The translations under genes and the position numbers were made by a program. The notes below the pieces were generated by a model. It ran no database searches and was not told where the DNA came from. It saw only the letters and a list, made by a program, of their open reading frames with translations. Below are positions 209-28,723 of a stretch of 32,000 bases of DNA, piece by piece. Source of the stretch: an uncultured Nitrososphaerales archaeon (lineage in GTDB: Archaea > Thermoproteota > Nitrososphaeria > Nitrososphaerales > Nitrososphaeraceae); contig CAVOHZ010000010.1 of the NCBI GenBank assembly GCA_963695855.1, positions 1,497,150 through 1,529,149 on the forward strand, in the 5' to 3' direction. Each line of letters opens with the position of its first letter. Within the stretch, counting starts at the first letter, position 1.

Positions 209-248
209 TACTTCGTCTGCACCTCGTACCTTGACAAATTAACTGTTA

Positions 249-3640: not shown

Positions 3641-3894
3641 CTGAAAAACACCCCTTCTAGTAGCGCTTTACCAGACATGATTTCGTAATTGTACTTTATT
3701 CCGCTATCTTTACAAACCCAACACGGACATTTGGACCTGGTAATTATTGTCTTTCTACTACCATTGTTAGTTTCTTGTGTAAACTGACTTACTTTAGGTA
3801 AGTTTAATAAATTGTTTTGGGTATCAATAATCACAAGTTCGCCATTACTCGTTTGTCCACTGGATTTCTTGCCAGTGGCCTTTTTTATCCTCAA
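3637..3894 (-). CDS. Small Cys-rich (CPCWVC) protein, first gene of the replication operon, copy A
   Basis: 85-aa ORF. The C-terminal RSKCPCWVCKDSGIKYNYE...EGVFF is conserved with 24307-24525. TTG start preceded by GGAGGG. The stop overlaps the ATPase start (TTGA). Confidence 0.5.
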   Translation of the reverse strand: MRIKKATGKKSSGQTSNGELVIIDTQNNLLNLPKVSQFTQETNNGSRKTIITRSKCPCWVCKDSGIKYNYEIMSGKALLEGVFFS

Positions 3895-4030
3895 ATTTTG
3901 TTACGCCCTCCGACCGATAATATTATGTCTAACAGTGTACCTAATCATCGGTTGACCTAGGACCAGCAGAGCCAACGATAATCCTAGGCCGCCGGAGGGG
4001 GTGCTAGCGTAATAAATTCGCAAATATTTG

Positions 4031-4060
4031 CATTTTTTGACATTTTTTGACATTTTTTGA
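4031..4060. repeat. Three perfect 10-bp direct repeats (CATTTTTTGA x3) next to the palindrome GCAAATATTTGC (4020-4031)
   Basis: Read directly from the sequence. Copy B carries a diverged 10-bp-phased array at the equivalent position (24152-24194). Confidence 0.85.
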
Positions 4061-4209
4061 CGAACAATTGCAGCACAATCGCAAAATACAGTACAAACCT
4101 TTAAAGGTGAATTTTTACTATCTTTCATTGACGTTCACTTCTGGTAGCGGTGCCGGTTGCTGTCGTCGTCCGTTGTTGCTGTCGTGCGTTCGCTTCGAAT
4201 CACGATATT

Positions 4210-4240
4210 GGCTTTGGCCGAGGTAATGGGCGGCCAAGCC
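4210..4240. other. Conserved stem-loop, copy A (10-bp stem with one A bulge; loop contains CCATTACC)
   Basis: In element orientation: GGCTTGGCCG-CCCATTACCT-CGGCCAAAGCC. The copy B counterpart (23967-24000) keeps the loop and the pairing despite four base-pair substitutions. Confidence 0.6.
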
Positions 4241-4270
4241 TTCTTTTAATAATATTATCATCCTTTACTT

Positions 4271-4444
4271 TCAGTCTCCAATGGTTTTGATGTTTTCTCT
4301 AAAAGTTGGAGTTACAACATCATTCAAACTATCCTATGATGTTCCCATGTTTCTGAGTCTTTGAAAATTTATATCGTCTACAAGTATGTGATGCGTTTTT
4401 TTATTATGTTTTGTTTGTTGAGAAGTAGTAATAATCGTACTCAT
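4271..4444 (-). pseudogene. RHH-like small gene of element copy A, interrupted by an in-frame TAG
   Basis: The reverse strand reads MSTIITTSQQTKHNKKTHHILVDDINFQRLRNMGTS*DSLNDVV..., aligning with copy B ...RYWHILVSDENRKKLKMHGMAGDSFNDVISKLL. The TAG (rc of 4334-4336) sits where copy B has Gly. Confidence 0.55.
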
Positions 4445-4785
4445 AGTTAAAAATATTAAGAAGTAACTTACTTATTAATTATAGTTTTTGATTGATTTTT
4501 TGTCTATTTACCCATGTTAGGGGTACAAATTTCAGTCACAATCTATAAATACGGAACAACCAAAGAACTGCTAAATGAGAACATAAACCAAGACGGCTCC
4601 TAACTTACCATGATAAGAACATAGGAAACATATCCTAACAAAATAAACAATAATAACATAAGAAAAATAATCTCTTGCTCACAATTTAATGTCAAACTTT
4701 TAATGTAGACTATTGGTTTACTAAAAGCGCCAAAAAAAATGTTAGCAAAAAAGATAATTGATTAAAAGATATATAATATGTTTTA

Positions 4786-5172
4786 TTATAGGTGAAGTAA
4801 AGTATCAACTGGTTGGATGGAGATCACACCAATCTTTTTTTCACTCTTGTCATTTATATGTTTAAGTTTTTGTACTAACTCCTCTAGAATATCTGACTGT
4901 GCTATGGTTACTATAGTCTTGCGATTTGAGGATATAGTAGCAGTTTGTCCTCCTGCTTTTCCTGACCTTATTTTTTGCTTGGACTGTCCATAACCATGCG
5001 AGTCATATAATGTGGCCTCTAAGTTTAAACTCTCAATTCCTGAAATTATTTCATCAACTTGTTCGGGACTAGCAAAAATTTCTATCTTTTTTAAACCTGC
5101 TTTAATTTTATTTTCATCTGTCTTTTCAGATTTGTCTATTTCGAAAGGTAAAACAGCTTTTTTATCTGTCAT
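4786..5172 (-). CDS. PII-like (GlnB-fold) small signalling protein with an N-terminal extension
   Basis: 128-aa ORF. The pattern KKIEIFASPEQVDEIISGIESLNLEATLYDSHGYGQSK...(loop)...KTIVTIAQSDILEELVQKLKHI...KKIGVISIQPVDTLLHL resembles the beta-alpha-beta / T-loop / beta-alpha-beta layout of PII proteins. Recognised by eye only. Confidence 0.45.
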   Translation of the reverse strand: MTDKKAVLPFEIDKSEKTDENKIKAGLKKIEIFASPEQVDEIISGIESLNLEATLYDSHGYGQSKQKIRSGKAGGQTATISSNRKTIVTIAQSDILEELVQKLKHINDKSEKKIGVISIQPVDTLLHL

Positions 5173-6288: not shown

Positions 6289-6666
6289 ATGTACATAAAA
6301 AAGATTTTGACTTTGAGTATAATAATGACAAGCATGCTATTCACTGGTATTTTATCGAATCCAACAACGGTTGCGATCGCTCAGCAACAAGAATCAGTAA
6401 CAATTACGCAGGGTGCAGCTGATGAAGGCAATCTCGAGCCATTTTTGCCACGTGCAGTTAATGTTATGCCAGGAAGCATAGTTTCATGGACAAATGAGGA
6501 TTCTATACCACACACGGTAACTGCTGGAGGAACTGGTGAACCACTATTTCACTCAGGTCCTATTTCTCCTGGAATGACATGGGATAATCGGTTTGATTCT
6601 ACAGGGACATTCGGTTATCATTGTTCGATACATCCATGGATGATGGGGAGGGTTATGGTTGGGTAA
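6289..6666 (+). CDS. Secreted or membrane-anchored plastocyanin-like blue copper protein (cupredoxin)
   Basis: 125-aa ORF with a hydrophobic N-terminus. Type-1 copper ligand pattern: HTVTAG ... YHCSIHPWMMG (His, Cys-x2-His-x3/4-Met). Confidence 0.8.
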   Translation: MYIKKILTLSIIMTSMLFTGILSNPTTVAIAQQQESVTITQGAADEGNLEPFLPRAVNVMPGSIVSWTNEDSIPHTVTAGGTGEPLFHSGPISPGMTWDNRFDSTGTFGYHCSIHPWMMGRVMVG

Positions 6667-12927: not shown

Positions 12928-12978
12928 TTCATGTTCAAATAATTTTGAAAACTAAAAATAATACCTCACGAGTTAACT

Positions 12979-13782
12979 AATAACTTTAACACTAACAACA
13001 AATACAAAAAAATAAAAAAAGAGTGGATTGAAGTCTTTTTTTCTATGGAATGGATCTGCTGTACAGTTTTCCTTCCAATGCTAGCTTGTACATCTCTGCT
13101 ACATACGGGTTCTTTCCTGGTGTTTCAGCACCAAGTTCTACTAGACGTGCATATACTCTTACTACATAAGCAAGAGCACCCATGAAAGCCACAACGACTC
13201 CCATGTTAAACATCCAGTGGTTAGGAACAGAAAATATTTCTTCTACGAACCAGAAGTGCCACATTTCGTTGATACCAATGGTAAACATTGTAGCCAAGTA
13301 ACCAATTATGGTTATCTTTAATCCTGTATTCATAGAATTGTTTGGACCTCTCAGGACAGGAACTCTTCTGTCGTACATTGCGACAAATCCCCATCCTAAT
13401 GGTAATGCAATAAAGTGACTGTATAACCACCAATGAGCTGGTGTGAATGCACTATCCCTAATAGCTGTCTGATGTAAAGAACCATCAACGAAGTTATCAA
13501 CTTCTACTGATGCAGCGATAGAACCTAACATAATGACCATTATGTAGATCTTTTTCAGTCTTTGAATTTCTACTTCTTTTGGTATTAGAGCGGGCATCTG
13601 AGCCATATCGATTTGATCACTCTTTACTTCTTGAAAGTATAATTTAAACATGTATCGGAAAAAACAACGAGTAAAAATGTAAAATATAGACAAAAATAAA
13701 ATAAAATTGTAAAATTTTTAATTTTATAGAATATAAAGTATAGATTTTAATACGGAGCTCTGCTTATCACTAATGCTTATCA
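12979..13782. repeat. Left arm of the ~804-bp apparently perfect inverted repeat carrying amoC
   Basis: This arm is the reverse complement of 16915-17719. Both junctions and ~150 nt of the coding 3' end were checked base by base. The in-frame (216 aa) and out-of-frame (70 aa) ORF translations are identical in both arms. Confidence 0.9.
13043..13606 (-). CDS. amoC: Ammonia monooxygenase subunit C, copy 1
   Basis: MAQMPALIPKEVEIQRLKKIY...VDNFVDGSLHQTAIRDSAFTPAHWWLYSHF...VPVLRGPNNSMNTGLK... is recognisably archaeal AmoC. The start is set at the ATG giving ~187 aa rather than the upstream TTG used in the ORF track. Confidence 0.9.
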   Translation of the reverse strand: MAQMPALIPKEVEIQRLKKIYIMVIMLGSIAASVEVDNFVDGSLHQTAIRDSAFTPAHWWLYSHFIALPLGWGFVAMYDRRVPVLRGPNNSMNTGLKITIIGYLATMFTIGINEMWHFWFVEEIFSVPNHWMFNMGVVVAFMGALAYVVRVYARLVELGAETPGKNPYVAEMYKLALEGKLYSRSIP

Positions 13783-13903
13783 TTACTGATGATCAACATG
13801 CAAATTTCCTTCATTCAATAATATTGCTTATTGATTTAAAGCTCCTGTATTTATTACCTTATGTTATAAAATTTTAGATTGGAATTACTTTTATATTCAA
13901 ATA

Positions 13904-15502
13904 TTAATAACCCAGATTCTTAAGAATGCCTTCTCGGTCAATATTTCTAACATGAATTTTTCCTGATTTAGAAACATAATCTGGTATTCCTATTCCAGCA
14001 GCTAAAATAGGAGTTCTATTTATTGAATGTGGCAGAAAAAAGTTTGTCACTTCATCATCATAAAAAGTAGAACCAGATGCACCTAATCCTTGTGCATAAG
14101 CAGCAAGATATATCTTTCCTAATCGTATTCCACCTTCCAATTGTACGGCTCTATATCCTCTATTACCTAACTTTTTCAATATTTTATTTATATCAGCCAA
14201 AATGAAACAAACAGTACTTGCATCAAAGAGAAGTTTTTGATCTAAACATAGATGTTCAGAAGCTGTTCTAAAATCACCAGTTTCAAGTTCATTAAGGGTA
14301 TTATTAATTTTATCATAGAAATAACTACCCGATTTAATGCCTTCGACAGCATTAACAATTAGATAAATATCTATCAAACTATCATCATGTTGAATAAAAT
14401 CAAATGGAATATTTTTATTTGCAAGGTATAGGATTTTTTCTAGTTGTGATTGTGTTATTGGTTTCTGAGAAAATTTTCTAGTTGAACCTCTTTGCAAAAT
14501 CACCTTATATAATGGAGGTCCTGTTTCAAGATTTTCTCTTACAAGACTAATTTTATCAGGTTTCTTAGAATATCTTACTGTTTTTAAAATTTCAACCCAT
14601 TTTTTTACATCATTTTCATATTCTAAATAAGAACCTTCGTGTACCTTCCATATTTGTGGAAAGTTAAGTTCTCCATATCTAGAAATTGGAATGGTATCAA
14701 ATTTTACATCTAGATTTTCTATATATTTGTTAGAGATTTCTTTTTCCTCTATTGTACCTACACCCAATGGAGATAACACAATTGCTGCCTCTTTTCGAGC
14801 TGGTAGCGAAATTATTTTGTTGACTAGATCATCTTGAAAACCCACGATGATCTCAGTTAATAAAGAATTTGCGTTACACAGAGATAGATAATTGGATATT
14901 ATTGTTCCAACATCCCAGAACCAATGTCGATATGATCTGTCTTGGTATTTCCATGAATTTCTCCAAGAAATAGAAGTAAAAATAAGAGTTACAGGAGACG
15001 TAATTATTTTTTCATTGTTTCCACAAGCATGATACAGAGTGGATCTATAATCACCGCTATGTAATTTGGTTAATGTAAAATCTCCAGGACAAAAATGATA
15101 TATTCCATCTTCTAGGTCACGTATATGCGTACATGCTAAATAAATTTCAATTGGATATAAAGCCCCTGTAGCTGATGCAGATCTCATGTAATAAATTGAA
15201 TTATTAGTCTTCATTATCCGCGTAATTCCTGCTGAAAGGAATAAAATTTGCGAAATTCTCATTAAATCTAGTTCATTAGAGGACATATTAGAAAAATTTT
15301 GTTCGTTTTGTAAACATGTAATAACGTCATTATCCGCAAGAGGAAAATTGGATGGTAAATATAATAAATCTAAATTATTAAAAAATTTAAAGGGTGAAGG
15401 TTTATTCTCCCAGTCCAAAAAATGAATGTTTGAATATACAGTAGATGGAGAATGTTTCGTAATCTGATGATATTCTTTTGCAATACCGATTTTATTATTC
15501 AA
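13904..15502 (-). CDS. SagB-type dehydrogenase domain fused to a nitroreductase-family domain
   Basis: 532-aa ORF. The N-terminal half has YHQITKHS...W.NKPSPFK and RSASATGALYPIEIYL (SagB-type signature). The C-terminal half starts with LQRGSTRKFSQKPITQSQLEKILYLAN (the nitroreductase RRSxRxF-type motif). TTG start. Confidence 0.75.
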   Translation of the reverse strand: MNNKIGIAKEYHQITKHSPSTVYSNIHFLDWENKPSPFKFFNNLDLLYLPSNFPLADNDVITCLQNEQNFSNMSSNELDLMRISQILFLSAGITRIMKTNNSIYYMRSASATGALYPIEIYLACTHIRDLEDGIYHFCPGDFTLTKLHSGDYRSTLYHACGNNEKIITSPVTLIFTSISWRNSWKYQDRSYRHWFWDVGTIISNYLSLCNANSLLTEIIVGFQDDLVNKIISLPARKEAAIVLSPLGVGTIEEKEISNKYIENLDVKFDTIPISRYGELNFPQIWKVHEGSYLEYENDVKKWVEILKTVRYSKKPDKISLVRENLETGPPLYKVILQRGSTRKFSQKPITQSQLEKILYLANKNIPFDFIQHDDSLIDIYLIVNAVEGIKSGSYFYDKINNTLNELETGDFRTASEHLCLDQKLLFDASTVCFILADINKILKKLGNRGYRAVQLEGGIRLGKIYLAAYAQGLGASGSTFYDDEVTNFFLPHSINRTPILAAGIGIPDYVSKSGKIHVRNIDREGILKNLGY

Positions 15503-15553
15503 AGGTATATATAATTAAAATTAAAATTTAAAATAATTTTTTAAAAAATTATT

Positions 15554-16570
15554 TTATTTGAATAACCCACCAATGCCACCAAATATTTGATCTAAAATGT
15601 TCTTTCCTTTTTCTTGAGCTCCTTCAGTAACATTCTTTGCTCCTTCACTAATTACTTGACCTGCTTGTTCAGCTCCTTCAGTAACATTCTTTGCTCCTTC
15701 ACTAATTACTTGACCTGCTTGTTCAGCTCCTTCAGTAACATTCTTTGCTCCTTCACTAATTACTTGACCTGCTTGTTCAGCTCCTTCAGTAACATTCTTT
15801 GCTCCTTCACTAATTACTTGACCTGCTTGTTCAGCTCCTTCAGTAACATTCTTTGCTCCTTCACTAATTACTTGACCTGCTTGTTCAGCTCCTTCAGTAA
15901 CATTCTTTGCTCCTTCACTAATTACTTGACCTGCTTGTTCAGCTCCTTCAGTAACATTCTTTGCTCCTTCACTAATTACTTGACCTGCTTGTTCAGCTCC
16001 TTGTTCAGCTCCTTCAGTAACATTCTTTGCTCCTTCACTAATTACTTGACCTGCTTGTTCAGCTCCTTGTTCAGCTCCTTCAGTAACATTCTTTGCTCCT
16101 TCACTAATTACTTGACCTGCTTGTTCAGCTCCTTCAGTAACATTCTTTGCTCCTTCACTAATTACTTGACCTGCTTGTTCAGCTCCTTCAGTAACATTCT
16201 TTGCTCCTTCACTAATTACTTGACCTGCTTGTTCAGCTCCTTCAGTAACATTCTTTGCTCCTTCACTAATTACTTGACCTGCTTGTTCAGCTCCTTCAGT
16301 AACATTCCCCGTTCCTTCAGTAATTATGCTTTCTGCCTGTTGAGCTGCTCCTGTCGCAGCAGATTGAGCTCCCTTAGTAATTACGCTTTCTGCCTGTTGA
16401 GCTGATGACGTTGCATTTTCTACTAAACTTTCAGCTTCATTCTTTATCCCTAAATTTTTTTCCAGTATTTCATTAGTAGTGTTTTGCGCAAAAGCTATAT
16501 GAGAAATTGGTGCTACCAATACCGCAAGAGTTACGATCAAAAGTGTTGAAAATATAGTTTTATCTTTCAT
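15554..16570 (-). CDS. Secreted hydrophilic Ala/Glu/Gly/Gln-rich repeat protein (LEA/hydrophilin-like composition)
   Basis: 338-aa ORF. N-terminal signal/anchor MKDKTIFSTLLIVTLAVLVAPISHIAFAQ. Two degenerate 18-aa repeats are followed by 12 identical GAEQAGQVISEGAKNVTE units, two of which carry an extra GAEQ. Confidence 0.8.
   Translation of the reverse strand: MKDKTIFSTLLIVTLAVLVAPISHIAFAQNTTNEILEKNLGIKNEAESLVENATSSAQQAESVITKGAQSAATGAAQQAESIITEGTGNVTEGAEQAGQVISEGAKNVTEGAEQAGQVISEGAKNVTEGAEQAGQVISEGAKNVTEGAEQAGQVISEGAKNVTEGAEQGAEQAGQVISEGAKNVTEGAEQGAEQAGQVISEGAKNVTEGAEQAGQVISEGAKNVTEGAEQAGQVISEGAKNVTEGAEQAGQVISEGAKNVTEGAEQAGQVISEGAKNVTEGAEQAGQVISEGAKNVTEGAEQAGQVISEGAKNVTEGAQEKGKNILDQIFGGIGGLFK
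15617..16306. repeat. 12 perfect 54-bp tandem repeats plus a partial unit, with two 12-bp nested duplications
   Basis: The unit AGCTCCTTCAGTAACATTCTTTGCTCCTTCACTAATTACTTGACCTGCTTGTTC repeats from 15617. An extra GTTCAGCTCCTT (phase approximate) occurs at about 15995-16006 and 16061-16072. All lengths are divisible by 3. Confidence 0.95.
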
Positions 16571-16914
16571 AAAAAAAATACAATAAATAATATTATTTAT
16601 CTCTTTCCAGAGATAAAATACAAGTTTGTTATATGAAATTAAAAAAACGATCGGTTATAATCAATGCATTTAGTGAGCTGTATTTTTGTCTTGTTTCATA
16701 TGGTTACTTATAAAACGGAAATAGTTTCGATATAAATTTTATCGAAAATAGCTGTAAAATTTACTAAATTATCTGACTATAAAAACTAGCATTACTAGTA
16801 CTTTTATAACGAATTATAAAAATGAGCTTATTATATTGGAAAATTAAAATTTATAATTAATAAATACGCTACTTATTCTATAAATAATATGTTGGTATGG
16901 CTGCTAATCGTCCG

Positions 16915-17719
16915 TGATAAGCATTAGTGATAAGCAGAGCTCCGTATTAAAATCTATACTTTATATTCTATAAAATTAAAAATTTTACAATTTTATTTTA
17001 TTTTTGTCTATATTTTACATTTTTACTCGTTGTTTTTTCCGATACATGTTTAAATTATACTTTCAAGAAGTAAAGAGTGATCAAATCGATATGGCTCAGA
17101 TGCCCGCTCTAATACCAAAAGAAGTAGAAATTCAAAGACTGAAAAAGATCTACATAATGGTCATTATGTTAGGTTCTATCGCTGCATCAGTAGAAGTTGA
17201 TAACTTCGTTGATGGTTCTTTACATCAGACAGCTATTAGGGATAGTGCATTCACACCAGCTCATTGGTGGTTATACAGTCACTTTATTGCATTACCATTA
17301 GGATGGGGATTTGTCGCAATGTACGACAGAAGAGTTCCTGTCCTGAGAGGTCCAAACAATTCTATGAATACAGGATTAAAGATAACCATAATTGGTTACT
17401 TGGCTACAATGTTTACCATTGGTATCAACGAAATGTGGCACTTCTGGTTCGTAGAAGAAATATTTTCTGTTCCTAACCACTGGATGTTTAACATGGGAGT
17501 CGTTGTGGCTTTCATGGGTGCTCTTGCTTATGTAGTAAGAGTATATGCACGTCTAGTAGAACTTGGTGCTGAAACACCAGGAAAGAACCCGTATGTAGCA
17601 GAGATGTACAAGCTAGCATTGGAAGGAAAACTGTACAGCAGATCCATTCCATAGAAAAAAAGACTTCAATCCACTCTTTTTTTATTTTTTTGTATTTGTT
17701 GTTAGTGTTAAAGTTATTA
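16915..17719. repeat. Right arm of the ~804-bp inverted repeat carrying amoC
   Basis: See 12979-13782. The inner junction is TGATAAGCATTAGTGATAAGCAGAGC. The outer junction lies just after AAAGTTATTA. Confidence 0.9.
17091..17654 (+). CDS. amoC: Ammonia monooxygenase subunit C, copy 2 (identical to copy 1)
   Basis: The translation is identical to 13043-13606. It is oriented divergently from copy 1 and has the same 176-bp upstream sequence. Confidence 0.9.
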   Translation: MAQMPALIPKEVEIQRLKKIYIMVIMLGSIAASVEVDNFVDGSLHQTAIRDSAFTPAHWWLYSHFIALPLGWGFVAMYDRRVPVLRGPNNSMNTGLKITIIGYLATMFTIGINEMWHFWFVEEIFSVPNHWMFNMGVVVAFMGALAYVVRVYARLVELGAETPGKNPYVAEMYKLALEGKLYSRSIP

Positions 17720-17802: not shown

Positions 17803-18147
17803 TTGGACCAATGTTATATCTGTGGATCAAAATTTGGTAATGTTATATGTGCATACTGTAATCAAAATACATGTTCATCTTGTTTGATCGAATCGGAAAG
17901 AAAATGTAAAAGATGTGCAATCTCTAAAAAACGACCTTCCGGCTTTCTAAGAAGAAACATTCCGTTCATATTGGGTATGGTTGCCGTATGGTTTTTTGTT
18001 TCAGGTTTGTATCCTTTTCCGTATTTTTATGCTGTAGGAAAACCAGTTGATGAGGCAATAATGCAACCGATTCTCATAGCTACGGCCATTTTTATGATTC
18101 CTTTCATATTTATGATGATTGCATGGAGAAAAAGACCACCGTATTAA
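17803..18147 (+). CDS. Zinc-ribbon membrane protein
   Basis: 114-aa ORF. N-terminal Cys clusters (CYICGSKFGNVICAYCNQNTCSSC...CKRC) are followed by two hydrophobic helices. TTG start. Confidence 0.5.
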   Translation: MDQCYICGSKFGNVICAYCNQNTCSSCLIESERKCKRCAISKKRPSGFLRRNIPFILGMVAVWFFVSGLYPFPYFYAVGKPVDEAIMQPILIATAIFMIPFIFMMIAWRKRPPY

Positions 18148-18227
18148 GAGCAGCTTCTAAATATATTGTAATATATTCCACAATTTTTAAAGATTAAATA
18201 AATAAGAAAATCAATTATCTGATAATC

Positions 18228-19607
18228 TTGCAAAAAGTGTTTTTACAATATGATAAAGGTTCAATCATTATATCTGGACTAGCTCAAATTCCATATACAA
18301 TATTTGATCCTAGAACTAATCAATTAAGAGCACAAGGATTTTACTATTCAAATATTATCTCGTTTTTACAGCAAAGTGGTATTGAATATGAAGATCGTGT
18401 TATGGATATAATTCCAACACCATCTCTTACTATATCTGATTCAAATATTAAACTATCTTTAAGAACATATCAAAAAAAAGCCATAGAAAATTGGGTAAAC
18501 GCAGACAAAAAAGGATGTATAATTTTACCTACTGGGTCGGGAAAAACAATTATAGCTATCAAGATAATTGAATTAATAAACTCTTCATCTATTATCATTG
18601 TACCAACAATAGATCTAATGGATCAGTGGATGAATGTTCTTTCAATATATTTCAAAAATCTGAAAATAGGAAATATAGGAGGAGGAAACTCGAATATTAG
18701 TGGTATAACAGTTTCTACATACGATTCTGCATTTCTTAAAGCACATCTAATAGGAAATAAATTTTCTCTACTTATTTTCGACGAATTGCATCATCTAGCT
18801 GCACCAGGATATAGGACTATTGCAGAGCAATTTGCCTCTCGATATAGATTAGGTCTAACTGCTACTTATGAAAGAGAAGATAATCTCCATCTAGAATTTC
18901 CAAAGTTAGTTGGAGGCATAGTGTTTCAATCACATGTTAATGAATTAACTAAAGAGAAACACTTGGCATCTTTTGTTGTAGAACGGAGATTTGTAAAGTT
19001 ATTACCAGAAGAAAAAATAGAATATAATCAAAATTACGAGTTATATCAAACTCTATTAAAAAAAATTGGGATTAAATTACGCGGTCAAATGGGGTTGCAG
19101 AAATTAATAATAATTTCAGGAAAAAACAAAGATGCAAGAGAAGCCTTACTTGCTAGGAATAGAGCTTTAGATATTGCTCTAAACAGTCAGTCCAAGGTGG
19201 AAGAATTAAGAAATATCCTTAATGAAAACCATGGATTAAAAACTATAATATTTACACAACATAATAAATTGGTATATACAATCTCTGACAAATTTCTAAT
19301 TCCATTTATAACTCATAAATCAAGTAAACAGGAAAGGGAAGATACCTTAAATGGCTTTAAAGACAATAGGTATAATGCTGTAGTAACATCCAAAGTATTG
19401 GACGAAGGTGTAGATGTTCCAGAAGCGGAATTGGGTATAATAGTTAGTGGTACTGGTAGTAAAAGGGAGTTTATTCAACGTTTAGGGCGTCTGTTGAGAA
19501 CTAAACCAGATTCAAATAAAAGAGCGAAATTAATAGAAGTAATTTCTTCTGAAACACAGGAAATTAATACAAGTGCTAGGAGGAAGCAAGCTCTTAAAAA
19601 TATTTAA
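18228..19607 (+). CDS. xpb: XPB/Rad25-type SF2 DNA repair helicase
   Basis: 459-aa ORF. Motif I is ILPTGSGKT and motif II is FDELHH. TATYERED contains the XPB RED motif. Motifs V and VI are VLDEGVDVPE and QRLGRLLR. Confidence 0.8.
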   Translation: MQKVFLQYDKGSIIISGLAQIPYTIFDPRTNQLRAQGFYYSNIISFLQQSGIEYEDRVMDIIPTPSLTISDSNIKLSLRTYQKKAIENWVNADKKGCIILPTGSGKTIIAIKIIELINSSSIIIVPTIDLMDQWMNVLSIYFKNLKIGNIGGGNSNISGITVSTYDSAFLKAHLIGNKFSLLIFDELHHLAAPGYRTIAEQFASRYRLGLTATYEREDNLHLEFPKLVGGIVFQSHVNELTKEKHLASFVVERRFVKLLPEEKIEYNQNYELYQTLLKKIGIKLRGQMGLQKLIIISGKNKDAREALLARNRALDIALNSQSKVEELRNILNENHGLKTIIFTQHNKLVYTISDKFLIPFITHKSSKQEREDTLNGFKDNRYNAVVTSKVLDEGVDVPEAELGIIVSGTGSKREFIQRLGRLLRTKPDSNKRAKLIEVISSETQEINTSARRKQALKNI

Positions 19608-19765
19608 TAGTGTAACTATAATTGATAGATAGATTATTTTTAAAAAAAACTAAAAATCAAATAAAATATTTAAATAATTTCTTTATCTTACATATTAACT
19701 CAAATCGCATCAAAAAGAATTAAATTAACTCGTTAATATGTTAGATTTTACATAATTATTATAAT

Positions 19766-22036
19766 ATGTCAAATAATAAATACATAGAATATAGTAACCT
19801 GTCGGAATCAGAAAATTATATAGATCATCCTCTAATCAAAAAAAAATCAATTGATCATCGATTGTATCAAACCAATATTGTTAATTCGTCGAGGGGAAAA
19901 AATTCAATGGTCATTCTTCCAACTTCTTTAGGAAAAACAATAATTTCAGCTCTATTATCTGCGGATGTTCTTTATAATTTTAAAACTATGAGGGTTCTAG
20001 TAATGGCTCCAACGAGACCATTAGTATTGCAACATATGTTCTCGTTTTCTTCAGTACTTAAAATATTAAACAATCAAAAAATCTTTGTTACAGGTCAAAT
20101 CCCACCATCTACAAGAAAGTTGATATGGGATAATAAAAATATCAGATTGATATTTTCAACTCCTGAGATAATAAGAAATGATCTTTTTGAAAGCCGTTTA
20201 TCTCTAAGTGATTTTGGATTGGTGGTTTTCGATGAAGCTCATAGAGCAGTGAAGGACTATGCATATACATATATTGCAAAAAAATATCTAGAACAGTCAC
20301 TAAATCCAGTCATTCTAGCTATGACTGCAAGTCCTGGATCAGATGGTATCAGGATCGACCAAATCTGTGAACATCTTAGTATTGAACATATAGAGTATCG
20401 AAATGAAGAGGATTCTGATGTAAAACCATATGTCAATCCAATCGATCTGAGTTGGGAATTAATAGATCTATCATGTGATTATAAAAATATTGTACATCTA
20501 TTTCGCGAAATATTAAAAGAAAAATTAAGATGGTTGGTTTATCGTGGATTAATTCAAAAAAAAAATCTTGAGTATATATTTAAAAGTGATTTATTAGAAC
20601 TTGGAAAAGTTCTCCAAAGAAATCTACAATTTTCGGTAACTGAAGAAAAAGGTCAGTTGTACTCTGCTTTGTTAAACCAGTCATCTGCTCTTTCTTTAAT
20701 GTACTGCATAGAATTAATCGAGAGTCAAGGTCCGTATTCTCTTGAAAATTTTATCAAGAGAATGGAATCTAGTGAGGGAAAAGCACATTCTATACTCTTA
20801 AAAGATTCGAGAATGGACGAAATAAAAAAGAAACTTGCAAATATTTCAGACCATCCAAAAATTAAATATATTATAGATTTATTGGATCAAAATAAATTCG
20901 TTTCCAATATACGGGATTCAAATAATACAAATCTTTCATTAGACTCTAATTCTAAAATATTAATTTTTACTCACTATCGAGATACAGCTACACATATTGT
21001 TGATGTATTAAAACAAAGAAAAATAAGATCCTGTAGATTTGTTGGACAATCGAGCAAAAATAATGATGTAGGAATGAAACAGGATGAGCAATCCAATGTA
21101 TTAGATTCATTTAGAAGAGGCGAATTTAATATATTGATAGCTACATCAATTGCAGAAGAGGGACTAGATATCCCTGAAGTGGATTTAGTTATTTTTTATG
21201 AACCTGTTGCAAGTGAAATAAGACATATACAAAGAAAAGGAAGAACTGGCCGTAGGTCAAAAGGTAAAGTTATAATACTTGCTTCAAAAGATACTGTCGA
21301 TATGCGTTTGCTATATGCAAGTAAAAGGCGCATTGAGAAGATGAGAAATATATTCAATACAAAAAAAACCTCACTAAAACCAATGAAACGAAATCAAATA
21401 TCCTTAACTCCATTAACTGAAAAAGAATTAGAATCACTTGAAGAATTACTTGAAAAAGAAAAAGCCACTCTAGGTACGGAAGACTATGATTTCAAATTAC
21501 AAAATTACAAGCTATTAGCAAAAATGAAAGATAATAAATTTGATGACAAATATTTAAGCAATAAACAATCAAGATTTGATGGAATTATTAATTCAAAAAA
21601 TATATCTAAAAGTAATAATAAATTGATAAATAAAACAATTAGAAATATTTATGAATTGTTGGTAAGAGAGAAAATAAATAAAAAGACCCAATTTGATCTA
21701 AGATATTTGTCCGATCATTTTTCTATAGACTATAACATATTGTTAGATGCAATTGATCAACTCCAGAAAGAGCATATGATAACAGTAAAAAATAATTCTA
21801 TTATTTTTAATAAAATACCAAATTCTAAAGAACAAAAATATATGATCTATGTTGAAAAAATATTGCCAGGAAAAGCATCTGTGCTAGTAAACGGACGATG
21901 GCATGCCGAATTAAATTATTATGATTATGATGGCCCACGTAATATTTTGAAAAAAGGATCCGAATTTATGGCAAGAGCAGATCTTTATAATAATGAAGGA
22001 TCATTTTGTATTAGAATAAAAGAAGTAATTCTGTAG
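19766..22036 (+). CDS. hef: Hef/FANCM/Mph1-family SF2 helicase without a recognisable ERCC4 nuclease domain
   Basis: 756-aa ORF. Motifs: VILPTSLGKT, FDEAHRA, MTASPGS, and FRRGEFNILIATSIAEEGLDIPEVDLVIFYEPVASEIRHIQRKGRTGR. The C-terminal ~220 aa are Lys/Asn-rich and end in a compact domain. No GDxnERKxxxD motif is seen. Confidence 0.75.
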   Translation: MSNNKYIEYSNLSESENYIDHPLIKKKSIDHRLYQTNIVNSSRGKNSMVILPTSLGKTIISALLSADVLYNFKTMRVLVMAPTRPLVLQHMFSFSSVLKILNNQKIFVTGQIPPSTRKLIWDNKNIRLIFSTPEIIRNDLFESRLSLSDFGLVVFDEAHRAVKDYAYTYIAKKYLEQSLNPVILAMTASPGSDGIRIDQICEHLSIEHIEYRNEEDSDVKPYVNPIDLSWELIDLSCDYKNIVHLFREILKEKLRWLVYRGLIQKKNLEYIFKSDLLELGKVLQRNLQFSVTEEKGQLYSALLNQSSALSLMYCIELIESQGPYSLENFIKRMESSEGKAHSILLKDSRMDEIKKKLANISDHPKIKYIIDLLDQNKFVSNIRDSNNTNLSLDSNSKILIFTHYRDTATHIVDVLKQRKIRSCRFVGQSSKNNDVGMKQDEQSNVLDSFRRGEFNILIATSIAEEGLDIPEVDLVIFYEPVASEIRHIQRKGRTGRRSKGKVIILASKDTVDMRLLYASKRRIEKMRNIFNTKKTSLKPMKRNQISLTPLTEKELESLEELLEKEKATLGTEDYDFKLQNYKLLAKMKDNKFDDKYLSNKQSRFDGIINSKNISKSNNKLINKTIRNIYELLVREKINKKTQFDLRYLSDHFSIDYNILLDAIDQLQKEHMITVKNNSIIFNKIPNSKEQKYMIYVEKILPGKASVLVNGRWHAELNYYDYDGPRNILKKGSEFMARADLYNNEGSFCIRIKEVIL

Positions 22037-22187: not shown

Positions 22188-23141
22188 CTAGGAAGCAATA
22201 ATCCCTTTAAATTTATCAGATATTTCATTTTGTGTCAAGTTAGAGCCAACTGCCGTGATTTTAGCATTTAAAGAATATTCTCCATCTGGATTATTACTTC
22301 TAATATGATATGCTCCTATAATAGAATCGCTAAAATCTGGACCATATACCAAGATATCGTCAAGATCGCTTGAAATAAGTTCGATCTGAAGGTCGTTTCC
22401 TAGCGCAACAAAGGACTTTGAAAAAACTGTCTTCAAGTTCTTGTCATCATGCAAGGTAATAGTGTAAGTTAATGGCACAGTTTTTTCAAAGTTAACGGAA
22501 GTTGGTTGGAAATCTAGTAAAATTCTATCATTTTCGGTAGTATTAAAAACCCAATCGTTTTGGGAATTATCCATTAAACCCATGTCAGATCCAGAATTCA
22601 ATTTTATGTTATTACCTTGCTTAAAAGAATCACTTACATAAACAGAACCTATCATCCAAGGATGAATCTCACAATGATATGCAACTCTTCCCGGAGTATC
22701 AAAAGTATATTGCATTGAACCAGAATAAGGTATAATACCTGAATTGAACATTTTTCCTGAATTCGGTGATCCTGGCGCATCGCTAGTTACAGTATGTATT
22801 GCTTCTGGATCAAAATTAAACCATGCTACAGTAGTGCCCATTGGTATGGCAATATTTAGGGGATAAAAATGTTGAAATTTGTAACTGATACCCGTACCCG
22901 TAGTTATATCAACAGCATAAGTAGGCAGTACCTTGTGGGAGGTTGGAGGTGGAACCATTCCATTTTCTCCGAATATCTCTGCATTTGATAAGAATAAGGT
23001 AAAGATGATTGCTAAAAATAGAAATAAAAATATTGTCAATAAATAAACTTGTATATAGGCCTTAATATCAGTTATGTTTACACTAGATTCATTTGCAATC
23101 ATCTGTAACATCTTTAATAATGATTCTATATAGTAAAACAA
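22188..23141 (-). CDS. Membrane-anchored cupredoxin-domain protein with an extra C-terminal domain
   Basis: 317-aa ORF. N-terminal TM VYLLTIFLFLFLAIIFTLFL. Copper site HTVTSD ... YHCEIHPWMIGSVYV. The C-terminal ~140 aa are unassigned. The internal ATG at 23111 is a plausible alternative start. Confidence 0.75.
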   Translation of the reverse strand: MFYYIESLLKMLQMIANESSVNITDIKAYIQVYLLTIFLFLFLAIIFTLFLSNAEIFGENGMVPPPTSHKVLPTYAVDITTGTGISYKFQHFYPLNIAIPMGTTVAWFNFDPEAIHTVTSDAPGSPNSGKMFNSGIIPYSGSMQYTFDTPGRVAYHCEIHPWMIGSVYVSDSFKQGNNIKLNSGSDMGLMDNSQNDWVFNTTENDRILLDFQPTSVNFEKTVPLTYTITLHDDKNLKTVFSKSFVALGNDLQIELISSDLDDILVYGPDFSDSIIGAYHIRSNNPDGEYSLNAKITAVGSNLTQNEISDKFKGIIAS

Positions 23142-23761
23142 TATTATTTAAAATATAAATGACATCAGATATCTATCAATCTTGAACTTCTAGAAGAATA
23201 AATAACTTCATTATCCCATAAATTATATTTGGTTAAAATCAATTCAATAAATTCAAAAATAGAATACAATTGTCTTGAAATGATAAGTGTCGTGCGACTT
23301 TGGTAACCTGAATAAATTTTAAATGAGAATTTGCTATTACCAATATATATTGATTAATTTTAACGAAAAAAGGATTATTGTTGTTTTTTTAACAAATGGT
23401 TATTGATCTGTCAGTTTTATGGAAACAATAATGAAGAACACAAATATTACATGAACTGTACTATTAGGATCATATTCATATAAATCTTGATTGCATAAGT
23501 TTGGCTAATCTTACCTATCAATTATCAATGTAGTTTCATATTTTTTGCATAAATAGCTTTAACGTTGTATTGTATATCTTGCTACAAACCAACATGAGTT
23601 ATTAAAGAATTGATGTAGCAAATAAATTCTAGAAAATGTTCTAAAACGTAAGTTTATGACGGAAATTTGTACCCTTAACGTTGGTAAAAGAGTGATATTA
23701 GACAAAAAAAACTAAAAAACGTTGAAAAACGTTGGTTTAATATTATAGTTCTGTATTAACA

Positions 23762-23950
23762 ATGTTGATGAGTCTAATAAATCCTACTATAGATTCAAAT
23801 AAAACTAAAAAAAGGTATTGGCACATTCTTGTGTCCGACGAGAATCGTAAAAAATTGAAAATGCATGGCATGGCAGGAGATTCCTTCAACGATGTGATAT
23901 CCAAATTGCTATCTCAAAATAATGTATTGGAGACTGATACTTCTAAATGA
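23762..23950 (+). CDS. Small RHH-like (ribbon-helix-helix) DNA-binding protein, copy B
   Basis: 62-aa ORF. RYWHILVSD (strand) - ENRKKLKMHG (helix) - SFNDVISKLLSQ (helix). It is the intact counterpart of pseudogene 4271-4444. Confidence 0.5.
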   Translation: MLMSLINPTIDSNKTKKRYWHILVSDENRKKLKMHGMAGDSFNDVISKLLSQNNVLETDTSK

Positions 23951-23966
23951 TAATAATTTATAAAAC

Positions 23967-24000
23967 GGACTGGTTGGGCCATTACCCCACAACCAAGTCC
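23967..24000. other. Conserved stem-loop, copy B (12-bp stem with two A bulges; loop CCATTAC)
   Basis: GGACTGGTTGGG-CCATTAC-CCCACAACCAAGTCC. It pairs like copy A, with compensatory changes at four stem positions. Confidence 0.6.
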
Positions 24001-24151
24001 TTAAGCGCAAGTCCCTCACGAACTCCACGCAGAGCCACAACAGAATCGCCACGCATGGCATCCCTATCAATAGTGAACGACAATGGAAGATAGTAAAAAT
24101 TCGCTAATAAGTCTTCCGTACTCATTTGTCGGTTACGCACAGAATACGCTT

Positions 24152-24194
24152 GCAAAAATTCACAAAATCTCACAAATTTTAACAAATTTTAACG
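24152..24194. repeat. Diverged 10-bp-phased A-tract repeats (TCACAAAATC / TCACAAATTT / TAACAAATTT / TAAC)
   Basis: Read directly from the sequence. It is the positional counterpart of the perfect 3 x 10-bp array in copy A. Confidence 0.7.
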
Positions 24195-24306
24195 CTAGCA
24201 TCCCCTCCGTCGTCGTTTGTTGCGGTTTTAAGTGTTTTCCCGTGACAAACGACAAAAAAATGAGTGAGGTACATTCGACATATTATCTGGCGGAGGGTGT
24301 AACGAT

Positions 24307-24525
24307 TTGACTAGAACTAGAAGAAAAAAGGCCGTATCTATAAAAAATAAAAATATCGATAGCATTCCAAATGATAAAAAGTTTACCTGGGCGTGGGAAA
24401 CCAACAGAAAAACTATTGTTGCCAGGTCAAAGTGTCCTTGCTGGGTATGTCTGGATAGCGGGATCAAATACAACTATGAAGTTTCATCTGGTAACAAACC
24501 GTTCGAAGGAGTGTTTTTCATATGA
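24307..24525 (+). CDS. Small Cys-rich (CPCWVC) protein, copy B
   Basis: 72-aa ORF. RSKCPCWVCLDSGIKYNYE...EGVFF is conserved with copy A. ATGA overlap with the downstream ATPase gene. Confidence 0.5.
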   Translation: MTRTRRKKAVSIKNKNIDSIPNDKKFTWAWETNRKTIVARSKCPCWVCLDSGIKYNYEVSSGNKPFEGVFFI

Positions 24526-26483
24526 CTGCTGCTTCAGAAGAAAATAACAATAACGCTAGAGAATTAAAGCAAAGTCCAGAAGTCCAAAAAAGCGAACTGA
24601 TTAAAGAAGCCTATTACTACCCAGATAATAATAGAGTAAAAATATCACTTAATGGAAAGATAGACGCCGACATTGTATTTACACTGGTTATAGATGATTG
24701 GACACGCAACATAAAGATAGTAATGGACCAGGCCCAGGCATATGGGTACACGGATAAGGCACACAGATCAATCTTTTACAGATTCATAAATGATAATGAG
24801 GACATTTTAACATCTAGTAATAATAAGGCTAAAGAAAAGCAGACACAACAGCAAGAAGAAGATGAGGAACAAAAAAAACAACTCATTCCAACCCTCAAAT
24901 ACTCGCAAATGGGAAAAGGTGACCTGTATGAATCCGTATTCATCGGAGATTTCCCGGCATACATAAAATATAATAGGAGCACAGGAACATTTGAAAGATA
25001 TGATAAGATTGAAGAAGCAATCAGAATCCTAAGACCTCCAGCAATAGAAGAGTGTCCACACCTACCTTATGAATTTGATAGTCTGGATCAGATTAATGGT
25101 ATTGCCAAGTTTATTGAAGATAACAACATAGACCGAGATTATTTGTACTATACATGTTACAAAATAGTCTCCAAATATAACAACCAATTACCACACAAAT
25201 TAAAATTAATAACAATAAACATAATCGCCTCACACTTTCAGGATATGTTCTCAACAACGCACTACCTTTATCTGGTTGGTGGTAATGGAAGCGGTAAAAG
25301 TTCTATTGCAGAGACACTTAGAGGACTTGCTTATAGGGCCGCAGTAATGACGGATCCAAGTGCACCCAACTTATTCAGATTGTTGGGAATGGTGGAGTCT
25401 ATGTAGTGTACCATGGTACTGGAAGAGGCCGACAAAATAGACAAGTCCACAGATTTAATGGCAATTTTGAAGACAGGTTTTGCATTTGGTGGGACTACTC
25501 CCAAAGTCAATCCCTACACAAACCTATCTGAACGATTCTTTACATACTGTCCTAAAATAATAGTGTCGGAAAGGTCATTAAATCAATCAATTGCAAAAGG
25601 TGTTAATTCGAGAATCTTTTCTATCAACTGTTTCAAGGGAAGCATAAAACATGATATCCTAGAAATCCTAAATCCTACTAATACAGGTGGACCAGAGAAC
25701 AAAAGGCTGCTGCAAGAGATTATGAACTTTCGAAAGTTGTTGCTGGTTTACAGATTGATGCACTTCAAGGATATGATTCCAGACTTAGATATAGGTGTAG
25801 AAGGTAGGGATAGACAACTTGTAAAATACTGTATACAACTCTTTCATGGGTGCAAATGTCAGGATGAAGTAATTAAAACCGTTCAAAAATTCTTGGATAC
25901 CAAGAACAATAAAAAACAAGCATCAATTGAATCCGTCTTACTACCGCTAATTGATAAACTAATCGAGACCAAGAAAACGAATCAAGTTTCATCTTTAGAC
26001 TTCTGGAAAGCAGTAATTAACGAGATTCCAGGACTACCAGACCTGCATAAACCTAATGAATTTCATACAGACGATTACGGGACATTATACAGAACAACGA
26101 TATCAGGTGTGGTTTGTGATTGCTTTGGTGCAAGTATAAAGCATGGCGATAAAGGAAACATCTTGGTATTTGACCGTACCGTAATTAAGGAACTGGTAAA
26201 GTCGGATATAGAGAATGATAAAACCAGAATAGTCGTTAACGAAATACCTCCTGGTCAATCAGTAGTGGAAGAAGAATATGAAGAATATGAAGATGACGAG
26301 TACGATGAACCTGAAGGCCTGAATAGTCTGAAGGCATCTGGGGAAGGGGGTACCCCTGATTTGGAAAAAAATGACGAGGGAGCCGAAGAGCAGGAGGAGA
26401 CAGAATCAGAGCCACTAGAACCAAATGATACATATTACCAGTTTGGGAAGAAAGGCCAATGGCGTGAGGGTATTCCACCTTGA
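24522..26483 (+). pseudogene. P-loop NTPase, copy B, interrupted by one in-frame TAG (25404-25406) between Walker A and Walker B
   Basis: The two ORF-track pieces (24522-25406 and 25413-26483) are in the same frame. Copy B reads MVESM*CTMVLEEADK where copy A reads MVESMQCTMVLEEADK, so CAG has become TAG. The rest of the frame is intact, including the acidic C-terminal tail. Confidence 0.7.
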
Positions 26484-26845
26484 TAAATCCTACATTAACG
26501 CTAACACCCAAGCAAAAGAAAGAGTTGATGGCAGGGGAAAGGGAAGCAGGAGCACCATCCTTTTTTAGTTACGGTTATCTTGATACTGAGAATAGACAAA
26601 AGATTCTTGAATACCTGAATGAAGGTAAAAGATTGAGGTGTCATCATCAAGATTGTCAGAGTTTCAATAGTGAGTTCATAACCCTTTATGATTATAATAG
26701 ACACTGTCATAGCAATCATCCTAGACAACCGCTACATCCATCACTACAGTATATCGAAGACTTGACTACAACATATTTTATTGCTGTAAATGAAAAAGCC
26801 TGGCGTAAATCACGACTGGTACCTAGGGGTAATCCGTGGGAATGA
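26480..26845 (+). CDS. C2H2-type zinc-finger protein, copy B
   Basis: 121-aa ORF with CHHQDCQSFNSEFITLYDYNRHCHSNH. The TTG start overlaps the ATPase stop (CCTTGA). Confidence 0.6.
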   Translation: MINPTLTLTPKQKKELMAGEREAGAPSFFSYGYLDTENRQKILEYLNEGKRLRCHHQDCQSFNSEFITLYDYNRHCHSNHPRQPLHPSLQYIEDLTTTYFIAVNEKAWRKSRLVPRGNPWE

Positions 26846-27103
26846 CTTCAACAGTAGAGCAAAAAAGTTCTAAAAACACCTACCCCCCCTACCCTAGGAG
26901 CCTTCAGGCCCTTCATGCCTTCAGCCTTAGAGATCCAGAACGACCTAGACTTTCTTTTAAGACACTTCTCAAATCCGTTATTTCCAAGAACCATAATGAC
27001 ACCAAAGGTAAAGCAGAAGGAAGTATATTCAAAGGAACAGGCACCAGTATTTTACAAAGAGGTTAAGAGGAAGATAAAAAATAATTATGATGTTGTCGTC
27101 TAG
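26842..27103 (+). pseudogene. Relic N-terminal module of a copy-A-type PrimPol gene, frameshifted at a C7 run
   Basis: The ATG at 26842 overlaps the Zn-finger stop as ATGA, exactly like the intact gene in copy A. MTSTVEQKSSKNTYPP matches MTTASAAKIEQKSSKNTYPP. After C7 (26883-26889; copy A has 6), the homologous reading LDFLLRHFSNPLFPRTIMTPKVKQKEVYSKEQA continues in another frame and ends at 27103. Confidence 0.65.
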
Positions 27104-28208: not shown

Positions 28209-28267
28209 ATTAGGTTATGATGATGGTACTAGTTAATTTGTATAGATATGAGGTGTCATTAAAGTAA

Positions 28268-28723
28268 TTGGGTGGAAGTTTCAAAAATAGAGAGAGTCAG
28301 ATTTTAATGCCTTTGGTCGCAGACTGTGTTAACTATGGCCTTTCAGAACCGGAAGCATTAGCGTATATCAAAACAAGGTTAGGAAGGACAATATCTCCAG
28401 GAACTTACTATAATCGCAAAAAAAAGGTAGATAGTGGAGAGTACGCCAATCAATGGATGTCCTACTACACCAGAGTAGGTTTTTTGGTTACCCACAAAAA
28501 GATTATTGATGTAATTGAAACCATTCAAAAGGACACATTAAGAGATTACCTTATCGAAAACAGTAAACCACACGAACAGAAAAATATGGATTTAATCCAG
28601 AAGTTAAGATATGAGATTAGAGAGAATTCAAAGTTAATTCAAGATTTAAGTCTAGGAAGTCCAATCATTGCACAGATTAAAGCGAAGATAGAACATGCTG
28701 AAAGTATTTCAACAGGCAAGTAA
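28268..28723 (+). CDS. HTH-like small protein, candidate small terminase subunit
   Basis: 151-aa ORF lying immediately upstream of TerL and overlapping it. An N-terminal helix-turn-helix-like segment (NYGLSEPEALAYIKTRLG) is followed by a long helical region. The assignment rests on position only. TTG start. Confidence 0.4.
   Translation: MGGSFKNRESQILMPLVADCVNYGLSEPEALAYIKTRLGRTISPGTYYNRKKKVDSGEYANQWMSYYTRVGFLVTHKKIIDVIETIQKDTLRDYLIENSKPHEQKNMDLIQKLRYEIRENSKLIQDLSLGSPIIAQIKAKIEHAESISTGK

Follow-up and report, generated by a model that had tools for sequence, protein, structure and literature searches.

The locus described here raises the question of why an archaeon should carry two copies of amoC, a gene for ammonia monooxygenase, as exact mirror images with two other genes enclosed between them. 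The window, by which we mean the whole 32,000-nucleotide (nt) stretch analysed, comes from an uncultured Nitrososphaerales archaeon (contig CAVOHZ010000010.1), a low-GC member of the soil-dwelling, ammonia-oxidizing Nitrososphaeraceae, and the enclosed cassette encodes a SagB-type dehydrogenase and a tandem-repeat protein. As judged from sequence comparison with relatives, the amoC copies were shown to be kept identical within genomes while diverging between genomes, and the cassette to be flipped repeatedly by recombination. The best overall explanation, to which we assign a probability of roughly three in four, is that an old inverted duplication of the amoC unit around the two-gene cassette has been homogenized by gene conversion and flipped repeatedly as a neutral flip-flop.

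Base-by-base comparison over the whole length indicated that the two arms of the repeat (for coordinates see Table 1) are 805 nt each and mutual reverse complements with 0 mismatches. The similarity ends abruptly at both outer and inner arm ends, and no residual match was detected beyond either. A perfect repeat of this length is far beyond chance. A previous reading of this DNA from its letters alone, hereafter the sequence-only reading, had proposed a perfect or nearly perfect inverted repeat of about 804 bp, in which each arm holds a full amoC, 176 bp upstream and about 65 bp downstream. All these elements were borne out by the full alignment, which revealed no divergence between the arms; the left arm had been set to begin 1 nt late. 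Each arm thus consists of the amoC coding sequence for 187 amino acids (aa), 176 nt on the 5' side of ATG and 65 nt on the 3' side of the stop codon. The encoded protein gave an AmoC profile score of 50.1 bits against the cut-off of 26.7, was found in exactly the same form on 462 contigs and called AmoC by several sources, and shares a 90% cluster with AmoC of Nitrososphaera viennensis (AIC17128.1). The organisms carrying the identical AmoC, and the closest named relatives of the SagB-type and XPB proteins of the window, are Nitrososphaeraceae archaea. The GC (guanine plus cytosine) content is about 29–33%.

An AT-rich TATA-like box was observed upstream of amoC at similar position in five aligned lineages, and a TATA box has been reported upstream of all known amoC genes (PMC3379541). 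Both amoC units point outward, with their promoters adjoining the interior. Oligo-T tracts act as transcription terminators in archaea, and the two T7 tracts located 23–37 nt beyond the amoC stop codon in each arm are probably such an oligo-T terminator. As the upstream element (see below), the TATA-like box, the coding sequence and the T-tracts are all included in each arm, each arm is a complete expression unit.

Such a mirrored pair could also have arisen falsely in assembly, from a repeat that was collapsed or from a long-read contig that is chimeric or folded back, as the sequence-only reading had feared. Foldback chimeras yield just such perfect identity and mirror symmetry, and the window derives from a single 1.8-Mb metagenomic contig. 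The mirroring is, however, confined to 805 nt, and the interior and both flanks are unique. Moreover, the same ends were found in independent assemblies of relatives, for which we use L numbers. L001 (3560 nt) and L002 (3572 nt) are contigs of short-read metagenome-assembled genomes (MAGs) of soil Nitrososphaeraceae, the closest species representatives with about 95% nucleotide identity to the window. Each is made up of one full arm ending exactly at the outer boundary of the window arm, of the interior, and of an inverted piece of the other arm (155 or 137 nt); a leftover of 137–155 nt is about what remains at a perfect inverted repeat in an assembly graph of k = 141. L039 and L076 have these inverted arm ends as well, the latter with terminal inverted repeats of its own of 250 nt. 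A Logan contig encoding the identical SagB protein stops 30 nt inside the arm at one end and 30 nt inside the tandem array at the other, an overhang that we take to be k − 1 for the k = 31 of Logan assemblies.

In addition, six metagenome contigs from ENA (L042, L044, L046, L048, L049 and L050; 61–254 kb), from six assemblies of different samples, carry amoC(−), the repeat-protein and SagB genes, amoC(+), an open reading frame (ORF) of about 114 aa (not called on L042), and XPB and Hef-like helicase genes. Their arms are 788–794 nt in length and 99.5–100% identical within each contig, and this lineage is about 18% diverged from the window in the arms. Detection of the same architecture in independent assemblies excludes a foldback or collapse artefact in our judgement, and we regard an artefact as extremely improbable.

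Contigs with SagB homologues of at least 53% identity were almost all as short as 1.7–4.5 kb, and these lengths represent a systematic break of short-read assembly at the amoC arms. Identical amoC units explain why short-read MAGs of ammonia-oxidizing archaea (AOA) systematically break at amoC, and MAGs of the SagB-linked clade probably under-report both the amoC copies and the amoC/SagB locus.

The orientation of the interior was compared among the six ENA contigs with the XPB side placed at right. L042, L048 and L049 are arranged as in the window, the SagB gene adjoining the distal amoC, and L044, L046 and L050 carry the opposite arrangement. L042 and L050 are colinear, with identities of 99.8% and 99.3% on the two sides up to the inner arm ends, and the segment between is reverse-complemented, the breakpoints falling inside the arms. 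The flanks of these two contigs are 0.00% apart on the distal side (2.5 kb) and 0.40% on the proximal side (4.8 kb). Since near-identical flanks are thus associated with opposite orientations, inversion must be frequent relative to point substitution. By the proximal flank the six contigs are split into two clades, one of L042 and L050 and the other of L044, L046, L048 and L049; as both clades hold both orientations, at least two independent inversions are needed. Short-read contigs passing through an arm (L039, L057 and two contigs from the Joint Genome Institute) were left out of the orientation scoring because, within a perfect repeat, either path is open to an assembler. Two marks of a flip-flop system were thus observed, i.e., long near-identical inverted repeats and the two orientations with breakpoints inside the repeats. 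The proposal in the sequence-only reading that recombination between the arms would flip the interior agrees with this occurrence of both orientations in nearly identical strains.

The arms were compared over 747 aligned nt (176 upstream, the coding sequence, and 7 downstream). The two arms within one genome differ at 0–4 positions, and the arms between strains of the ENA lineage at 2–15 positions. Between the three lineages, represented by the window, the ENA contigs and L055, the difference rises to 134–144 positions. Since the pairs are alike within genomes and divergent between them, concerted evolution by gene conversion is indicated, rather than recent duplication. Strain-private substitutions were found in both arms, such as those specific to L044 and those specific to L039 relative to the window. 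The position of the pair is orthologous, as the same cassette lies between the copies across lineages. The genes for the 114-aa ORF, XPB and the Hef-like helicase follow the proximal amoC not only in the window but also in L039, L042–L050 and L057, marking the orthologous position, and the distal flank with YjbQ and hemerythrin is common to the window and L055. From the orthologous position and the within-genome identity together, we conclude that the duplication is old and the copies are continually homogenized. Likeness within the genome, a duplication older than the split of the lineages, and substitutions shared by both copies, the three features by which concerted evolution is recognized, can all be read from these alignments.

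The sequence-only reading had left the choice between a very recent duplication and continuous gene conversion. A duplication restricted to this genome, with too little time to diverge and no conversion, agrees with the zero difference between its arms. It leaves unexplained, however, why the same position and cassette are found in lineages 134–144 positions apart, each with its own pair of nearly identical copies, and why strain-specific substitutions appear in both arms; it is implausible that each lineage duplicated the unit on its own and with the same boundaries. A recent duplication is therefore judged to be very unlikely, and of the two choices gene conversion was retained on the basis of the 747-nt comparison.

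At the exact inner end of each arm, the element TGATAAGCA-ttag-TGATAAGCA is located. Within the window, TGATAAGCA was found only at these two junctions (four matches against 0.44 expected), and sequences with one mismatch were not enriched in the window (36 matches against 33 expected). A programmed switch might be supposed from this location: a recombinase encoded elsewhere would act at TGATAAGCA, and the orientation would control the genes of the cassette or those outside, for instance if transcription of the SagB gene ran on across one amoC to the XPB/Hef side. In favour of a switch are the 3:3 ratio of orientations among close strains and the place of the short motif, which sits precisely at the inner junctions and has no other site in the window. 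So is the arrangement of the SagB gene, which is co-directional with amoC copy 1 lying 121 nt plus 176 nt downstream, no run of five or more T being detected by eye between them.

The motif is, however, also present upstream of single-copy amoC genes. In the ENA lineage, L055, L057 and N. viennensis, the amoC ATG is preceded at about 165–175 nt by the sequence TGATAAKCA or its complement, often as a dyad; the amoC locus concerned in N. viennensis is single-copy and near amoB. A closely similar sequence occupies about the same position in the amoB-amoC-amoX-amoA clusters of another lineage (L061, L066), so that each Nitrososphaeraceae amoC locus examined has the element or a close variant. Since the element also stands 5' of single-copy amoC, it belongs to amoC itself and is no recombination site peculiar to the inverted repeat. 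The best reading of TGATAAKCA is a cis-regulatory element conserved with amoC, whose place at the border of the duplicated unit is incidental, and it may be considered a candidate binding site for a regulator. An earlier study found no conserved regulatory motif for amoC (PMC3379541). The short direct repeat at the inner junction noted in the sequence-only reading is thus present at both inner ends, and its specificity to the inverted structure is not sustained.

Further evidence against a switch is the absence of integrase, invertase and transposase domains among the 28 window ORFs scanned with Pfam, and the length of the arms, 805 nt against 10–40 nt typical of invertons. In addition, the identical arms with their own oligo-T tracts make both states equivalent in cis. 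Whichever way the cassette points, the repeat-protein gene has a divergent amoC 344 nt upstream of it, and the SagB gene is followed by an amoC in its own direction; inversion alters nothing within 805 nt of any gene, and the 805 nt bordering the cassette on each side are the same in both states. Taken together, a programmed switch is unlikely, and the locus reads as a passive, recombination-driven flip-flop. Of the invertible-segment architecture proposed earlier, the inversion itself was supported; the hint of a switch was not, the cis context being unchanged and no recombinase gene being found in the window.

For the passive flip-flop, the following mechanism may be proposed as the most parsimonious. 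General homologous recombination of RadA type between the 0.8-kb identical repeats would invert the cassette with no dedicated invertase, and gene conversion would be a by-product of the recombination between the arms. Flipping would be functionally neutral because the arms are identical, complete and outward-facing, each with its own upstream element, promoter and terminator. Selection may keep two equal doses of AmoC, the linkage of amoC to the cassette, or both. The inverted orientation would stabilize the duplication, as recombination then inverts the cassette and does not delete it.

The flanks of the pair were compared among relatives for signs of its origin. On the distal side, a hemerythrin gene is truncated at its 5' end; its remnant, corresponding to residues 82–182 of the intact gene of L055, stops 36 nt short of the distal arm, and the first 81 residues are found nowhere in the window. 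The remnant was left behind by the rearrangement that gave the outer boundary its present place. If a simple inversion had been the origin, the missing N-terminal part might lie inside the cassette; it was sought there and nothing was found. In L055, of which the dehydrogenase is 50% identical, the genes are arranged as amoC, repeat protein, SagB and amoC, with the amoC copies forming a perfect direct repeat of 759 nt and the intact hemerythrin and YjbQ genes adjoining, this direct-repeat form being represented by a single contig of about 3x coverage as given in its name. Recombination between the direct repeats of L055 should excise the cassette. Of the structure, L041 (8206–9812) retains no more than the distal amoC arm and some 600 nt of interior; the homology then breaks off next to a fragment of an IS481-like transposase, pointing to an IS-associated rearrangement at this locus.

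These flanks bear on the idea of a mobile composite element, in which the amoC arms would serve as transposon-like terminal repeats for moving the SagB/repeat-protein cargo. The boundaries are sharp, the distal flanks differ between lineages with a truncated hemerythrin gene at one outer end, an IS481-like transposase adjoins the rearranged copy in L041, and two provirus-like elements are located nearby. Against these observations, the arms encode only AmoC and no transposase, and the outer flanks ACCTCACGAGTTAAC and TATTGATAGTCGAAA share no target-site duplication. The proximal flank is conserved across lineages. The GC content of the arms and interior is host-like, 0.32–0.35, against 0.38 in the provirus-like elements. 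A composite element of this kind is accordingly considered very improbable.

The linkage of amoC and the cassette was also followed in more distant relatives. SagB homologues with 42–46% identity (Nitrosopolaris-like and others) have no amoC within 7–8 kb, indicating that the linkage is restricted to the clade with at least 50% identity. In a metagenome scan, amoC was found at only 3 of 80 loci, the contigs of the linked clade being as short as 2–4.5 kb owing to breaks at the arms. A variant of AmoC, P0018, occurs in the amoB-amoC-amoX-amoA clusters of another lineage with 84% nucleotide identity. Universality of the arrangement in the family was rejected, as amoC of N. viennensis is located about 7 kb from amoB without an inverted repeat, SagB gene or XPB gene nearby; a neighbouring 187-aa ORF of N. 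viennensis is not amoC. Within one clade the amoC-cassette linkage has thus been conserved, with several rearrangements taking place around the amoC units.

Several points weigh against the old, homogenized and neutrally flipping duplication that we prefer. Truncation of the hemerythrin gene at the distal arm means that the outer boundary in the window is a derived one, and, given the direct form of L055, either form may be the ancestral one, with more than one possible route between the two. Neutrality of the flipping and the dosage rationale are inferred from the arrangement of the DNA. With respect to the rate of flipping, orientation was compared between strains and samples as consensus contigs. 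That the ENA contigs are long-read assemblies was judged from how they are named, from their length and from the frameshift errors in them. Short-read polishing, if applied to the source assembly, could erase a few true differences between the arms and thereby exaggerate their identity. Finally, the analysis of this genome covered the window, and amoC copies elsewhere in the genome might take part in the conversion.

The interior itself consists of two genes in the same direction. The first encodes a protein of the nitroreductase fold with a TIGR03605 (SagB domain) score of 172.3 bits against the cut-off of 78.4, and homologues with 50–95% identity are present in uncultured Nitrososphaeraceae, for the most part on contigs of 2–4 kb, as expected if assemblies break at the arms. 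The conserved neighbours of SagB are amoC and the repeat protein, and no match to a YcaO-family cyclodehydratase was detected among the scanned window ORFs; for this reason the SagB-fold enzyme is assigned by domain only, and is not a demonstrated enzyme of thiazole/oxazole-modified microcin (TOMM) synthesis. The second gene encodes the tandem-repeat protein, of which both N- and C-termini are homologous to those of the L055 counterpart. The length of this protein varies from 244 to 431 aa among relatives (L039, L042–L050, L055), and the repeat unit differs by lineage, 18 aa or 36 aa; the conserved parts are the signal-peptide-like N-terminus and the C-terminus with GG(I/L)GGLF.

As the amoC-cassette linkage survives in at least three lineages, in inverted and direct forms and with the dehydrogenase down to 50–55% identity, the SagB-type dehydrogenase and the repeat protein might act together with AmoC or ammonia monooxygenase as a functional module, co-regulated with amoC through the TGATAAKCA element. 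Stress protection, repair or maturation may be suggested as examples of its role. We consider this module possible but rather doubtful. As its corollary, the species-specific clustering of amoC paralogues in Nitrososphaeraceae trees would be due to concerted evolution and not to repeated recent duplication.

Table 1. Features of the amoC inverted repeat, its interior and its flanks (positions are those of the window unless a contig is named)
Feature	Position	Strand	Basis
Left (distal) arm, one complete amoC expression unit	12978-13782	-	Direct base-by-base comparison and repeat search
Right (proximal) arm	16915-17719	+	Repeat search and base-by-base comparison
amoC copy 1, 187 aa	13043-13606	-	Pfam PF04896 AmoC, E = 3e-13
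amoC copy 2, 187 aa, identical to copy 1	17091-17654	+	Pfam AmoC
TATA-like box of amoC copy 1	13637-13648	-	Ends 31 nt before ATG
TATA-like box of amoC copy 2	17049-17060	+	Ends 31 nt before ATG
Two T7 tracts 3' of amoC copy 1 stop, putative terminator	13006-13020	-	Letters on - strand
Two T7 tracts 3' of amoC copy 2 stop, putative terminator	17677-17691	+	Letters
Element TGATAAGCA-ttag-TGATAAGCA of amoC copy 1, exact inner end of arm	13761-13782	-	Motif search
Element TGATAAGCA-ttag-TGATAAGCA of amoC copy 2, exact inner end of arm	16915-16936	+	Motif search
Unique interior, 3132 nt, cassette that flips	13783-16914	- (both genes)	Repeat comparison; both orientations in relatives
SagB/ThcOx-type dehydrogenase, nitroreductase fold, 532 aa	13904-15502	-	Pfam Nitroreductase and TIGR03605
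Tandem-repeat protein, 338 aa, N-terminal signal-peptide-like sequence, 18-aa repeats	15554-16570	-	ORF and repeat analysis
Repeat array of the tandem-repeat gene	15617-16326	-	12.7 copies of 54-nt unit
5'-truncated hemerythrin remnant, residues 82-182 of the intact L055 gene	12640-12942	-	tblastn E = 8e-28
Proximal flank: 114-aa Cys-rich hydrophobic protein, XPB helicase, Hef-like helicase	17803-22036	+	Pfam
Direct amoC repeats of L055	L055 5018-5776 and 8430-9188		
TGATAAKCA sites elsewhere	L051 9835-9843; L055 5033-5041 and 8445-8453; L057 3074-3082		

Inverted duplicates of the same general type are known elsewhere. The tufA and tufB genes of Salmonella and E. coli, from the work of Abdulkarim and Hughes in 1996 and of Hughes in 2000, are said to be inverted duplicates that co-evolve by gene conversion, recombination between them inverting the segment between. 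The amoC pair resembles tufA/tufB in that near-identical inverted copies of a highly expressed gene are homogenized by conversion and inversions spare both copies; it differs in that the copies are only 3.1 kb apart around a specific conserved cassette, in an archaeon, and both isomers are common in wild strains. Plastid genomes (Palmer in 1983) and the Halobacterium plasmid pNRC100 (Ng et al. in 1991) reportedly exist as flip-flop or inversion isomers formed via large inverted repeats. General recombination between the repeats is the mechanism for tufA/tufB, plastid inverted repeats and pNRC100 alike. The plastid and pNRC100 systems share with the amoC pair long inverted repeats kept identical by conversion and two isomers formed by general recombination with no known regulatory role; their repeats, however, are many kb in length and the isomers coexist in one cell line, whereas the amoC arms are 0.8 kb and the isomers were compared between strains. 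The segments of fimS, Hin, Bacteroides invertons and shufflons are likewise bounded by inverted repeats and found in two orientations. In contrast to the amoC locus, the repeats of these systems are short, a dedicated recombinase is encoded next to them, and inversion alters how a promoter or the end of a coding sequence stands to the genes outside. The amoC pair belongs to a known class, that of inverted gene copies which evolve in concert and give rise to neutral inversions, and no new kind of genetic switch is revealed by this locus.

Within ammonia oxidizers, concerted evolution of amoCAB has been documented in bacteria (PMC6053082). The copies of amoCAB, hao and cyc operons in betaproteobacteria are like the amoC pair in representing the same enzyme system, with near-identical paralogues, conserved synteny and divergence between species; they are unlike it in being bacterial whole operons not described as an inverted, cargo-flipping pair, the archaeal case concerning amoC alone. 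Extra amoC copies were named as a known feature of ammonia oxidizers in the sequence-only reading, and indeed multiple and even identical copies have been described for soil AOA (PMC6776761, PMC10030591): three identical copies in Ca. Nitrosocosmicus franklandus (PMC6776761), three in Ca. N. exaquare (PMC5398378), and six in Nitrososphaera viennensis (PMC10030591). Hodgskiss et al. invoke genus-level duplications for the multiple copies (PMC10030591). An average amoC copy number of 2.9 is given in the literature for soil AOA. As in the window, these reports of Nitrososphaerales deal with extra amoC away from amoA and amoB that can be identical; they differ in giving copy numbers only, with no inverted pair, flipping interior, SagB cargo or concerted evolution. 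In the full-text literature searched, in which subscription journals are incompletely covered, we found neither a report of concerted evolution of archaeal amoC nor a description of an inverted amoC pair with a SagB cassette, in line with the earlier impression that a mirrored pair enclosing a cargo was not a described arrangement. The concerted evolution of archaeal amoC, the conserved linkage of amoC, SagB and the repeat protein, and the conserved motif upstream of amoC are new.

With respect to amoC phylogeny, the trees of soil AOA that were read as genus-level duplications (PMC10030591) may partly be an artefact of homogenization, and both the copy-number histories and the diversity estimates based on amoC need revisiting. 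Identical amoC units also act as active recombination substrates rearranging AOA genomes, as seen in the inversion, the direct-repeat form of L055, and the swapped or truncated flanks. The linkage of amoC, SagB and the repeat protein, together with the upstream motif, offers testable leads on the regulation of amoC and on accessory factors of archaeal ammonia monooxygenase.

Apart from the amoC locus, the window contains two related mobile elements, one at 1–4544 and the other at 23651–28466 (the right one continuing to at least 30134), which are 72–93% identical and in inverted orientation. They bracket a host segment of about 19 kb holding the amoC repeat, and recombination between the two elements might in principle invert a larger stretch. 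Each element encodes a PriX-domain primase and an ATPase of 589 aa; the right element, which looks like a head-tail provirus, also encodes a terminase large subunit (phrog_2). The GC content is 0.38 for the mobile elements against 0.29 for the host. No tRNA gene that could serve as an integration site was found in the window. The ATPase gene is intact in the left element (589 aa, 1871–3640); in the right element it was called as two ORFs six bases apart (24522–25406 and 25413–26483; 294 and 356 aa), and this element seems to be decaying.

Two candidates for blue-copper proteins were also noted. One, at 22188–23141 (−), has no Pfam match and was judged by eye from its sequence; the other, at 6289–6666 (+), matches plastocyanin/azurin of Pfam. 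A PII-like gene (4786–5172, −) is located just beyond the left mobile element, and PII genes have been noted on thaumarchaeal integrated elements (PMC6563490).

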